Sequence record: MN176217 | DNA: 64,000 bases | Reading direction: 5' to 3' (one strand) | From: Escherichia phage vB_Eco4M-7 | In this document: in pieces, positions 9,988 to 22,024 of the stretch | Layout: the number at the start of each line of letters is the position of its first letter | Position numbering within the stretch: position 1 is the first letter of the stretch | Position numbers and translations under genes: made by a program | Notes under the pieces: model-generated | Seen by the model: only the letters and a program-made list of their open reading frames with translations | Databases searched by the model: none | Told to the model about the DNA's origin: nothing

Positions 9988-10389
9988 CTATTCAATCTTA
10001 TGGGCATCACCAAAACCATCAGCAATCTGGCTGATCAACGACTCAATGGACACAGTTTTACCAATTGATCGAGCGGTAATAGCAAGCATATTATCAATCA
10101 AGCCACGATTGACTTCACATGTTCCAGGCTTTAACTCATCTTCAGAACAACCAAAAAGCTGGTCGCGCAGACTTTCAAGAGAACGCTCAATATTTTCCAA
10201 CTTCTCTTCTAAATCGGATTGGCGACGTAAAACCCATGTCAAGTCACGGTTGCCGACTTCCAATCCATCAGAATAGCAAGGTGGAGCGTCAATTTTGATG
10301 CTGGAACTAAAAGCAGTGCCGCTGCCTTTAGTATAAGTATGGCTCATAGAATCATTTTGGCTCATAGAATCATTTTTATTTGACATATC
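9988..10389 (-). CDS. hypothetical protein with tandem N-terminal SMSQNDSMS repeat
   Basis: ORF track frame 9988..10452, start trimmed to ATG with AAGG RBS; tandem 17-nt repeat at 10340-10380. Confidence 0.5.
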   Translation of the reverse strand, partial: DMSNKNDSMSQNDSMSHTYTKGSGTAFSSSIKIDAPPCYSDGLEVGNRDLTWVLRRQSDLEEKLENIERSLESLRDQLFGCSEDELKPGTCEVNRGLIDNMLAITARSIGKTVSIESLISQIADGFGDAHKIE

Positions 10390-10483
10390 ATTACCTTTAA
10401 TATTTGGGTGATTAACAATAACTATAATAAAGCCGCATAGCGCGCCATTCAAATCGATTTATTAATTGTGACGATTGGATTCA

Positions 10484-10711
10484 TCAATCGATACAAATTG
10501 TGCAGGGTCGCCGGATACAGTTGCGCCGATGATACCCATCTGAGAGAAAAAATTCTGAATAAACTTCCTTCCAGTACTTACGCGCTGCTTTCTGGGCTTG
10601 ACCTTTGCGCTTGAAGCTTTTACCTTGAAATATGAAGCGGTCTTTTGGTGCGTAATACTCCACCACACCTTCCAGCCATTGTAAGAACGCTACTGATTCA
10701 TTTTTATTCAT
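10484..10711 (-). CDS. hypothetical protein; possible +1 frameshift or homopolymer error at T6 run
   Basis: Two overlapping ORFs (10484..10711 and 10462..10668) join at a T6 run near 10545-10552. Confidence 0.35.
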   Translation of the reverse strand: MNKNESVAFLQWLEGVVEYYAPKDRFIFQGKSFKRKGQAQKAARKYWKEVYSEFFLSDGYHRRNCIRRPCTICID

Positions 10712-11577: not shown

Positions 11578-13917
11578 TTATTTTGCTGCTTTCAGCGCGG
11601 CTATCTCTGCCTCGAGAACCTCGATGCGGTCCATCAATGCAAGAATAGCCTCGTGGTGCAGTGCTGCTGCTACGCCTGGTGTGTTGACAGATTTTATGTT
11701 ATCCAACGTCGAACCGTCGCGCAGAGTAACAGGCGATGACTGTGTTTCAGATACTGCTTCAGGAAAGTCTTTCTCTACATCCTGGGCGATGAAGCCAAAA
11801 CCGACGGAGCCATTAGTTTCCAGAGTCCATGCCACGCCTCTAATATTGCGCATCTTGACGAGTGGATCAGTGATCCGCTCAATGTTACTTTTAATACGTT
11901 CATCAGATATACTCCGCCACTCCTGACACCTTGCTATTCCATCGGAGCCAAAAAGATAAGAGGCCGCGCCGCCTGTCCCGCTGTAAACGTTCAATTGAGC
12001 GCGGTCCAGCGCGGTCGTGCTACTCCTTATGCCTCCGAGAATCCAGCTTCCGCTGTACCAGTCACCGCTGATTGAGTTTACAAAATTTCCTTCTGGAACG
12101 TTGGCATAGTTTTGAATCCTTATGGCGTTGTTTTCTGCAGCAGCAACGCCTACTGAATTAACTGGGGATGCAACAAGGTCTTTAGACCGGATATATGCAT
12201 CAACAAATATTGTTCCATCAGGGCGCAGAGTTCCAATCTGGGATGTGGAATTTGGCAACACCAATTTGCCATCTTGGTTAAATGCCCACTCTTGCACCCC
12301 ATTAGATATCACCGCACCTTGTTCAGATGTTAATCCATCAATCTTGCCGTATGCCTGCAAGAATGCTTGATACGCGATGTTCGTGCCAATCTTATATTCA
12401 GATTTTACACTACCGCCTCTGACAAGCGTTCCGGTTGCAGGTTTTACTGCGTCACCATTAATGACGCTCCAAGTCGTATTCGCGGCAACAAATCCACCAG
12501 ATGCACGAATCACCCAAACACCTTCAAAGGCATTAGGTCGAATTTCATTCGCATCATCACGTCCATAAGCGCCATTTGACAGCGATGCATCAAAGTTCAC
12601 GTCTACATAATAACCATCAGAAGTCCCGCGCATACTTCCAGCAGTTTTTACTATTTTTGGCTCAAATGCGCCATATCCTCGCGTCACGCCAGAGGTGCCG
12701 AATGCAGTAAGCATAGACACATTAGGTGAACCAGAAATATTTGGTGCAGCACTCTGCCTGACACGACCGTCGTTTGAAGATACACCTCCATCACCACGCC
12801 CGAATAAACCTGGGATTGAGCCTGCTTGAACGCCGTTGCGGTCTGGAACTCGAAATGTAGTTGTGCCGTTGCCTAATGAATACTTGCCGCGTTTCGCTGG
12901 GTCCGCTAACCAATCTGCATCAGCAATAGGCGAAAGCATTTGCGCATATGCCCAAAGTTCAGGCCAATCTGCACGATTGAGTAATTGGCCGTCAGAAACG
13001 ACTTCGTAAGGCTGGATGTAAGCACGACTGTCTCGCAAGTGGAAGTCGCCGACGCCATAGTTCATAACACCGTTCATGCTTGGGCCAACGGTGCCTGTGT
13101 TCACTAAGTTCTCAACCCAACGCTTGGTTGCAGCATCATAATCGTTTACCGGATCACCAGCAAGCGGAGTCGGCCCTTGTGGACGAATATTCAACCAAGC
13201 TTGAGCATTGTCTGCTGATCCTGTGCCGCCCATTGAAGTTGGAACGATGCTTTGATCAGCGACTTGTCCGAATCCAAAAGCAGACTTCATCCCCTGTATG
13301 GTAGTTTGACCTGTGCCGCCATTTGCGACTGGTATAACGCTTTGCGTGTTATAAACTTGAACCCAATCAGACCAGGATGATATATCGACGCTATACAACC
13401 TTTGGTATACTGTGTTTATCCAGTAAGGCGTGTATCTCTGCACACAGCTGTTCGTTGAAACTCCCGTTTGTAAAACTTCAAGTATTCCAGCTTGTTCTAC
13501 AGGATAGTTGAGTGCTGTTGACGCCCCAGCATTAGTCGGTTGGTAATATTGACCGAACCAGCTTCCGTTCAGCGCGTTAAGGTTTATGCCATTAGGAATT
13601 ACGCCAAAGTTTCGGACAGTACCCGTCAAAGTCGCGGCAGTAGTTCGAATGGAAAGCATATCACCAGCCGCCCAAGCACGCGCTGCAGTACCTTCCTGTG
13701 CACGCTGCACGGTCAGGACGTTTCCAACAACGGCTGTTACTGTGACGATTTCGAATTGGAGGCCTGTTGCGGCGTCAACGATTGTCGCCACTACACGCTC
13801 GTTTGCGCCCAAGGTCGGAAAGCCCGACCCTGAGCGAATTGTGATTGTGGTGTCTGAAGTCGTCGTTGGCTGAGCGAGCGCGACCTCAAAGTTGTTTTTG
13901 AATATTAGCCTTGGCAT
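11578..13917 (-). CDS. tail fibre/spike protein with C-terminal intramolecular chaperone (peptidase S74-like) domain
   Basis: 779 aa; Gly/Thr/Asn-rich fibre-like body; C-terminal SDERIKSNIERI...ALMDRIEVLEAEIAALKAAK resembles the autoproteolytic chaperone domain of phage fibres. Confidence 0.7.
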   Translation of the reverse strand: MPRLIFKNNFEVALAQPTTTSDTTITIRSGSGFPTLGANERVVATIVDAATGLQFEIVTVTAVVGNVLTVQRAQEGTAARAWAAGDMLSIRTTAATLTGTVRNFGVIPNGINLNALNGSWFGQYYQPTNAGASTALNYPVEQAGILEVLQTGVSTNSCVQRYTPYWINTVYQRLYSVDISSWSDWVQVYNTQSVIPVANGGTGQTTIQGMKSAFGFGQVADQSIVPTSMGGTGSADNAQAWLNIRPQGPTPLAGDPVNDYDAATKRWVENLVNTGTVGPSMNGVMNYGVGDFHLRDSRAYIQPYEVVSDGQLLNRADWPELWAYAQMLSPIADADWLADPAKRGKYSLGNGTTTFRVPDRNGVQAGSIPGLFGRGDGGVSSNDGRVRQSAAPNISGSPNVSMLTAFGTSGVTRGYGAFEPKIVKTAGSMRGTSDGYYVDVNFDASLSNGAYGRDDANEIRPNAFEGVWVIRASGGFVAANTTWSVINGDAVKPATGTLVRGGSVKSEYKIGTNIAYQAFLQAYGKIDGLTSEQGAVISNGVQEWAFNQDGKLVLPNSTSQIGTLRPDGTIFVDAYIRSKDLVASPVNSVGVAAAENNAIRIQNYANVPEGNFVNSISGDWYSGSWILGGIRSSTTALDRAQLNVYSGTGGAASYLFGSDGIARCQEWRSISDERIKSNIERITDPLVKMRNIRGVAWTLETNGSVGFGFIAQDVEKDFPEAVSETQSSPVTLRDGSTLDNIKSVNTPGVAAALHHEAILALMDRIEVLEAEIAALKAAK

Positions 13918-21103: not shown

Positions 21104-22024
21104 ATGACGATACCAATCAACACATTCCCTCTATCTGGACAAACTCCAGTCTTGCCTGCGGTGTATGCTAATGGCTTGGCGATTGTCTCAGAATTCACAT
21201 CAGATAAAAACCTGATTGTTCCATTGAGTCCGCCGCTTGCATCAGGGTATAACTCAGTAGGTCAATTCTTTATGATTGGCAATGATGGCGATTCGACCAG
21301 TAAGCCTAATCTGACATTGTCTGTACCTAAGATGGACATCACAGACGTTCAAACTGGCTTGACTGCATCAACAATCACCATTGCTTTTGGAGAAGCGGTG
21401 ATTATAGGAATGGAGTCTGGAGGGTCCAAGAATGCTGTCGCCGTTAAGGTAGTCAAATCCAGCGACAACCAATACACGTTACCAGCTGCGACGGATTCCG
21501 TTCTCGGCGGCGTCAAAATAGGAAGCGGAATAAGCGTCGCAGGTGATGGTACAATTAGCGTCACTCAATACTCATTGCCGATTGCGTCAGCATCTACTTT
21601 AGGCGGCGTAAAGGTCGGTACAACTCTATCAATTGATGGTTCCGGTGTGCTTAACGCAGCGGAAAGCACCGTCCAGAATGCCACGAACAGTGTTAGCAAT
21701 CCTCCAACCACTTTGGTTAATCTGGCAACCTTAAACCTTCCTGCAGGAAAGTGGCTTGTGACGGCAAGTCAGTTGACTGTCGCGACAGCAGGAATTCAAG
21801 CGAACACCGGAATTACAGCCAAATTGTCAACAAGCGATTCAGATATTACGGATGATGCATTTACGATGTCAGCGGGCATTCGGGCTGCAGGTCGTTTTGG
21901 CGGCAACATCCCGACAAAAATAATCACTCTTGCCGCGCCTGGTGATGTATATCTAAACTATCAGTGCACCGATGCATTGACATCTACCGTTCACGGACAG
22001 ATCACCGCAATTAAGCTGAACTAA
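21104..22024 (+). CDS. virion fibre-like protein with repeated ...LGGVK(I/V)G...S(I/V).G(D/S)G... motifs
   Basis: ORF track frame 21011..22024 trimmed to ATG after GAGGT; tandem fibre-repeat-like motifs. Confidence 0.45.
   Translation: MTIPINTFPLSGQTPVLPAVYANGLAIVSEFTSDKNLIVPLSPPLASGYNSVGQFFMIGNDGDSTSKPNLTLSVPKMDITDVQTGLTASTITIAFGEAVIIGMESGGSKNAVAVKVVKSSDNQYTLPAATDSVLGGVKIGSGISVAGDGTISVTQYSLPIASASTLGGVKVGTTLSIDGSGVLNAAESTVQNATNSVSNPPTTLVNLATLNLPAGKWLVTASQLTVATAGIQANTGITAKLSTSDSDITDDAFTMSAGIRAAGRFGGNIPTKIITLAAPGDVYLNYQCTDALTSTVHGQITAIKLN

Follow-up and report, generated by a model that had tools for sequence, protein, structure and literature searches.

A probable non-programmed one-base insertion in a T run divides gene 24 of Escherichia phage vB_Eco4M-7 into two overlapping frames

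Two overlapping open reading frames on the minus strand of Escherichia phage vB_Eco4M-7 meet at a short run of T, which raises the question of why what looks like one small gene should be divided there. A first, sequence-only reading of this DNA had pointed to the pair, proposed a +1 frameshift at the run, and offered two causes, programmed slippage or a homopolymer sequencing error. We compared the locus with related phages and metagenome contigs; throughout, the window means the whole stretch of 64,000 nucleotides of record MN176217 that was analysed. The answer we reach is a third one: gene 24 is very probably a conditionally dispensable accessory gene of wifceviruses whose T5 run has become T6 by a real, non-programmed insertion.

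The ORF listing returns both frames where they had been reported, at 10484..10711 and 10462..10668. The T6 run is also present, although its earlier span of 10545-10552 was two bases too wide and the run occupies 10547..10552. The features of the locus are as follows:

10484..10711, minus strand: frame-A ORF, ATG start, 75 aa, MNKNESVAFLQWLEGVVEYYAPKDRF...CTICID, stop TGA at 10486-10484; a conserved N-terminal domain (residues 1-55) followed by 20 out-of-frame, Cys/Arg-rich residues (LSDGYHRRNCIRRPCTICID); annotated as O157vBn_00007 / WZK99012.1 in PP596836
10462..10668, minus strand: frame-B ORF, GTG start, 68 aa, ending ...FFSQMGIIGATVSGDPAQFVSIDESNRHN; annotated as vBEco4M7_24 in MN176217 (Table S1, PMC7048862)
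10547..10552, minus strand: T6 run, the site of a +1-nt insertion relative to T5 in relatives; frame A reads it as UUU_UUU_C
10462..10545, minus strand: C-terminal tail of the ancestral protein, 27 codons and a TAA stop at 10464-10462, SQMGIIGATVSGDPAQFVSIDESNRHN, left in the +1 frame
10505..10507, minus strand: CCC run, which is CC in the T6-bearing wild relative DAVI22 scaffold_14

On the minus strand, the run stands in the context ...TCA GAA TTT TTT CTC TCA GAT GGG.... Frame-A codons start at coordinates that are 1 mod 3 (TTT 10552-10550, TTT 10549-10547, CTC 10546-10544) and frame-B codons start one base further 3' (TTT 10551-10549, TTC 10548-10546, TCT 10545-10543); thus, passing from A to B needs a +1 shift, and the codon phases bear out the direction first proposed. 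Frame A has a GAGG Shine-Dalgarno sequence at 10720-10717, 5 bases upstream of the ATG at 10711-10709, and its 75-aa ORF is the product expected under standard decoding. In frame B, homology to the family is limited to the last 27 codons. The 41 residues before these, two of them Phe encoded by the T run, are the N-terminal domain read out of frame, and the 68-aa GTG ORF is thus a gene-caller artefact of the frameshift. Because the frame-B tail is identical to the C-termini of uninterrupted homologues at 25-26 of 27 residues, the ORF pair is not a chance overlap. Indeed, uninterrupted homologues join exactly these halves: the genuine N-terminus lies in frame A and the genuine C-terminus in frame B. 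The frame-A end after the run, which had been described as Cys/Arg-rich and junk-like, proves to be 20 residues out of the ancestral frame. The peptide EVYSEFFLSDGYHR is specific to frame A and EVYSEFFSQMGIIGATVSGDPAQFVSIDESNR to an A/B fusion. The window contains 18 homopolymer runs of at least 6 bases, and the T6 run at 10547..10552 is the only one at which a real gene is broken; the few further hits, which involved an intergenic run or antisense ORFs judged spurious, were rejected as gene breaks.

Over the 901 bases round the site, identity is 100% to vB_Eco4M-7n (PP596836.1, Wifcevirus) and 89-96% to a further 27 wifcevirus records. The site region found no match among complete E. coli genomes, and a prophage gene was rejected on that account. 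Gene 24 was translated and aligned at 21 related loci. The length of homologues had been put forward as a check, and it is informative: in 12 of the 21 relatives, the frame-A N-terminus and the frame-B tail form one uninterrupted protein of 78-82 aa. Homologues therefore do end with the frame-B C-terminus, which the sequence-only reading had named as evidence against its proposal, and they do so with no need of a shift. The alleles are distributed as follows:

82-aa uninterrupted form, nine phages: ...KEVYSEFF(S/Q)QMGI(I/V)G(A/S)TVSGDPAQLVSIDESNR(H/Y)N
78-aa form, in WFC, Bas98 and Bas99: the same protein, with the last residues altered by a downstream insertion
64-aa form with a 32-nt deletion, in SP13, ECO71P1, Ro157lw, RCIP0363 and FEC19: ends ...GID at the frame-A TGA of the window
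Frame-broken alleles: vB_Eco4M-7 (T6), Bas101 (T4, 86 aa), ECML-117 (1-nt deletion, codon 37) and WFH (7-nt duplication, giving 32 aa, plus a later TAG)
T5 at the run, seven relatives: Bas100, EC150, WFC, TH35, Bas99, AV128 and Bas98, reading GAATTTTTCTCTCA(G/A/T)
T4 at the run: Bas101
No T run, GAGTTCTTTCAG instead, 12 relatives in total: TH32, kaset, CWP003, RCIP0319, Mansfield, ECML-117, WFH, SP13, ECO71P1, Ro157lw, RCIP0363 and FEC19

The 12 run-less relatives read GAGTTCTTTCAGCA(G/C) at the site, the run being removed through synonymous codon changes. Against T5 haplotypes, such as the otherwise near-identical WFC, vB_Eco4M-7 has exactly one extra T. T4, T5 and T6 are each found, in different phages, and the tract is short. 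Among 5.8 billion protein clusters, 37 matched; all belong to this family and the 82-aa form is dominant. The same search returned the two annotated halves, as P0052 ('vBEco4M7_24', 68 aa, frame B, from the 68,084-bp MN176217) and P0001 (75 aa, frame A, from PP596836), and it also returned the 1-nt deletion at codon 37 of ECML-117 in protein P0051 (9 contigs). Taken over about 60 sampled genomes, this 82-codon gene has undergone at least six independent frame-changing events, three of them at the same T run. In WFC, Bas99, Bas98 and the UViG contig described below, an insertion of about 92 nt right after gene 24 carries a 31-aa hydrophobic mini-ORF (VDFVMFLIILAISAVFVVAMIALIDWLDK, Bas99_0103), and it is this insertion that changes the last residues of gene 24 and gives the 78-aa form.

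What does the break remove from the protein? Across the nine 82-aa alleles that remain in frame, codons 1-55 have a pN/pS of 0.11 and codons 56-82 one of 0.22, as compared with 1.3 for the tail read in a wrong frame; the tail is thus truly coding and subject to purifying selection. Most relatives have a +1 frame that stays open for about 79 codons, but its pN/pS is 1.3; an overlapping gene there was rejected, and the openness was put down to chance or composition. An AlphaFold2 model of the in-frame homologue P0018, built on a shallow alignment of 30 sequences that are 85-98% identical to the first, places elements at H3-16, E18-20, E25-28, E31-33 and H36-57, with pLDDT of 84-93 over residues 11-50 and below 50 over residues 61-79. 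The model predicts a folded N-terminal helix/three-strand/helix module at approximately residues 3-57 and a disordered tail, the part that is lost. Since the T6 break, at codons 55/56, comes where the conserved module ends, it would swap only the flexible tail. Phage proteins with a related structure, 49-52 aa long, are made up of nothing but the module, and the same is true of profile phrog_22059 with its 52 positions. The family has no Pfam hit, and its PHROG hits are only to function-unknown families. No gp24 peptides are listed in the virion mass spectrometry (PMC7048862), which fits a non-structural accessory protein.

The T6 allele is also found outside the isolate, in six metagenome-derived contigs of two other lineages. 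In the first lineage, P0002 (three contigs, including the ENA scaffold DAVI22-1...scaffold_14, 68,789 bp), the product is ...EFFLSDGYHRRNCIRRPAQLVSIDESNRHN; here, the DNA carries T6 together with CC for CCC 44 bases downstream, a second-site -1 deletion that restores the last 13 residues (AQLVSIDESNRHN). In the second, T6 is uncompensated. Pattern scans of IMG/VR and metagenome contigs found it in IMGVR_UViG_3300045988_152943, OKHM01000095.1 and OKMM01000298.1, on a different haplotype, which carries an insertion of the WFC type and encodes ...EFFLSNGYHRRNGIRRPCTIGID. When a neighbour-joining tree was built from 585 bases of flanking sequence, the three T6 lineages stood apart, each next to T5 or run-less alleles. 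As they do not cluster, T6 arose repeatedly or moved by recombination. The tree does not support a single origin of T6; with about 5% divergence and mosaicism, recurrence and recombination are inseparable.

The two records of the phage were produced in different ways: MN176217 is a CLC de novo assembly of Illumina MiSeq data at 1,130x coverage, and PP596836 is a Shovill de novo assembly of Illumina NovaSeq data, made in a different laboratory. Both derive from one isolate, and their T6 is identical (100% over the 901 bases). The ORF coordinates of the window are those of Table S1 for MN176217, through genes 82 and 83. In the gene 38 region, MN176217 is one base longer than PP596836 (1501 vs 1500 bases, 99.9% identity), and the re-sequencing paper lists this difference between the records as AC->C, Thr209fs; this 1-nt indel elsewhere establishes them as separate records. 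The published differences comprise a 111-bp terminal repeat and genes 18, 38 and 62, and gene 24 is absent from the list. As a side observation, gene 38 (approximately 21104-22024, 307 aa) lies next to the minor capsid protein gene, and the aligned span in Bas98 equals the window length; since the records differ there by 1 nt, one of the two carries a second frameshift, real or artefactual.

With these records in hand, both causes first suggested for the break are disfavoured. A homopolymer sequencing or assembly error, with a true T5 genome and an intact 82-aa gene, deserves to be considered, since a 1-nt homopolymer difference is the classic signature of such an error and the exact uncompensated protein is unique to vB_Eco4M-7 in a collection of 15 billion proteins. 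Illumina consensus is reliable at a 6-base run. Two Illumina data sets and two de novo assemblers gave the same T6, in a comparison of records that did reveal a 1-nt indel elsewhere, and six further independent contigs carry T6 as well; an error is therefore extremely unlikely and is excluded for practical purposes. The mutation itself could have arisen in early laboratory propagation; from the wild T6 contigs it follows only that alleles of this kind occur in nature. Programmed +1 ribosomal frameshifting, with T6 as an evolved recoding signal that sets the ratio of the 75-aa to the 82-aa product, is attractive at the level of the codons: UUU_UUU_C presents two consecutive UUU_Y sites where re-pairing in the +1 frame is possible, slippage at either of the UUU codons yields exactly the ancestral EFFSQMG..., and T6 is found in three wild lineages, all with the frame-0 tail intact. 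Moreover, UUU_Ynn is reported to be a particularly shift-prone motif in bacteria, in the +1 direction and with no need of a stop codon (PMC5009743). Against this, the two-frame layout is missing in 17 of 21 relatives, 12 of which read straight through, with T5 or with GAG TTC TTT CAG in place of a run, while the other 5 have the 32-nt deletion; more than half of the relatives (12/21) are without any T run. The site itself lacks a stop, the 0-frame codons after the first UUU being UUU and CUC, and 11 bases separate the run from the closest purine-rich stretch before it (GGAAGGAAG, 10572-10564). The Shine-Dalgarno-like element of prfB is spaced by about 3 bases. No stimulatory RNA structure was found downstream: over the 91 bases that start with the run, folding is no better than that of shuffled sequence (z = +0.55). 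One T6 lineage has in addition fixed a frame-restoring second-site deletion, which would be needless if shifting were efficient; this speaks against decoding having already compensated for the insertion. Programming at this run is accordingly very unlikely. Programmed transcriptional slippage was also rejected, as the run is 6 nt long and not conserved, as compared with the 7-9 or more A/T expected. At least 7 T are reported as necessary for slippage by E. coli RNA polymerase (PMC6260861), and selection against slippery runs becomes evident at approximately 9 nt (PMC1088944). No phage RNA polymerase is annotated in MN176217.

The insertion allele that we favour can be described as a short series of steps. 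The ancestral state is a small 82-aa accessory gene of wifceviruses. Its T5 run, at codons 54-55, has gained one extra T, for which replication slippage would be the simplest origin. Under standard decoding, the gene now gives a 75-aa protein in which the predicted N-terminal module is kept and the 27-residue tail is replaced by 20 out-of-frame residues, and which ends at the same TGA as the natural 64-aa deletion variants. The function of the module is presumably retained, and loss of the tail is likely tolerated: the five natural 64-aa variants indicate that phages without the tail are viable, and vB_Eco4M-7, as a vigorous isolate, evidently tolerates the T6 allele. At the same time, the tail's pN/pS of 0.22, a sign of purifying selection, and the existence of a compensated allele argue that the tail matters. 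This is hard to square with tolerance, unless full-length protein is still produced in some amount or the gene is useful only under certain conditions.

An accidental indel whose gene stays partly functional through leaky 'corrective' decoding, by +1 slippage or by loss of a U by RNA polymerase, would explain why T6 alleles persist with intact tails, and both the shift-proneness of UUU_Ynn and a class of 'corrective' frameshifting have been described (PMC5009743). Tails are undamaged in frame 0 in all three T6 lineages, but this may simply reflect recent insertions; similarly, two of the three differences between the window and UViG tails are synonymous in frame 0 and non-synonymous in +1, but three substitutions are too few to carry weight. 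The run is also below the minimum of 7 T reported for E. coli RNA polymerase (PMC6260861), and the compensated allele suggests that any leakiness is insufficient. We therefore regard leaky correction as unlikely, although low-level, unprogrammed +1 slippage at UUU_UUU_C, perhaps at the percent level and restoring some full-length protein, is plausible from the codon context. A stronger form, in which a polymorphic T4/T5/T6 UUU_Y site makes T6 alleles dual-product genes (75-aa main, 82-aa minor) in at least three wild lineages, is quite improbable; if it is true, T6 may be maintained since a lower dose of the tail is advantageous, for example, in evading a host sensor. It is also conceivable, with a shade less probability still, that tail disruption itself is selected, for instance through host defence sensing, with the T run as a weak mutational switch. 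Disruption is recurrent (T6, T4, the 32-nt deletion and the codon-37 deletion), and at least six frame-changing events, set against purifying selection on the intact tail, are typical of conditionally useful accessory genes. However, T5-T6 is short for a contingency locus, known examples of which have far longer tracts, and the pattern is equally compatible with weak constraint.

Several known systems resemble gene 24 in part. Closest in form are the homopolymer indel alleles known as 'pseudo-pseudogenes' (Baranov et al. 2005, PMC1088944), which show the same split into two ORFs with intact orthologues; the gene 24 run differs from these in being only 6 nt, under the length of about 9 nt for transcriptional correction, and restoration at the mRNA level is thus unlikely. 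Yersinia YopN-TyeA (PMC5009743; PMC4914553) shares UUU followed by a pyrimidine, the +1 direction, the lack of an adjacent stop and the C-terminal extension, but there the layout is conserved and the fusion has been shown experimentally, whereas the gene 24 layout is exceptional in its family. With prfB (RF2), gene 24 has in common the +1 direction and the potential for P-site tRNA re-pairing on a U run; it is without the in-frame stop, the Shine-Dalgarno-like element 3 nt upstream, the autoregulation and the conservation. The G7 'problem/savior' indel of herpesvirus thymidine kinase (PMC5009743) is likewise a viral homopolymer indel with possible low-level rescue, although for gene 24 both the benefit of the indel and its rescue are hypothetical. 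Finally, the tail-assembly-chaperone G/GT of phages also has two overlapping frames near tail genes, but it depends on a slippery heptamer that is conserved, works in the -1 direction and lies upstream of the tape-measure gene, whereas gene 24 involves +1 and lies downstream of a tail-fibre gene; gene 24 is unrelated to G/GT in sequence and in predicted fold.

The public records currently conflict, as MN176217 annotates the 68-aa frame B and PP596836 the 75-aa frame A, which are mutually exclusive halves. Both annotations are best read as one frameshifted allele of the 82-aa family. A frameshift allele is an ordinary event, and the main value of the present analysis lies in annotation and housekeeping: a homopolymer break can be real and yet unprogrammed. 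The combination of repeated breakage, one second-site compensation and purifying selection where the gene is intact marks gene 24 as conditionally dispensable. A synthetic-rebooting platform, with in-vitro assembly and HiBiT tagging, already exists for vB_Eco4M-7 (PMC11074155).

The neighbourhood of the locus, with coordinates from Table S1, is as follows:

9988..10386: gene 23
10462..10668: gene 24, as annotated in MN176217
10719..11114: gene 25
11578..13917: tail-fibre gene 27

A small cluster on the minus strand, made up of gene 26, a 32-aa ORF, gene 25 and gene 24, ends with gene 24. The cluster lies downstream of the tail-fibre gene and that gene's terminator-like hairpin (11570-11551), and a promoter-like site (11552-11525) belongs to it. 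A second promoter-like site (10452-10424) precedes gene 23. A hairpin follows gene 24 (10432-10446, minus strand), formed in most relatives by GCCGCGCTATGCGGC and then TTTATTAT; that of vB_Eco4M-7 reads GGCGCGCTATGCGGC, with one stem mismatch, and the scan does not call it terminator-like. Within gene 23 (10339-10374, minus strand), there is an in-frame 18-nt tandem duplication (AATGATTCTATGAGCCAA / AATGATTCTATGAGCCAT), encoding NDSMSQ-NDSMSH, which is absent from all 17 relatives whose aligned sequence reaches there.
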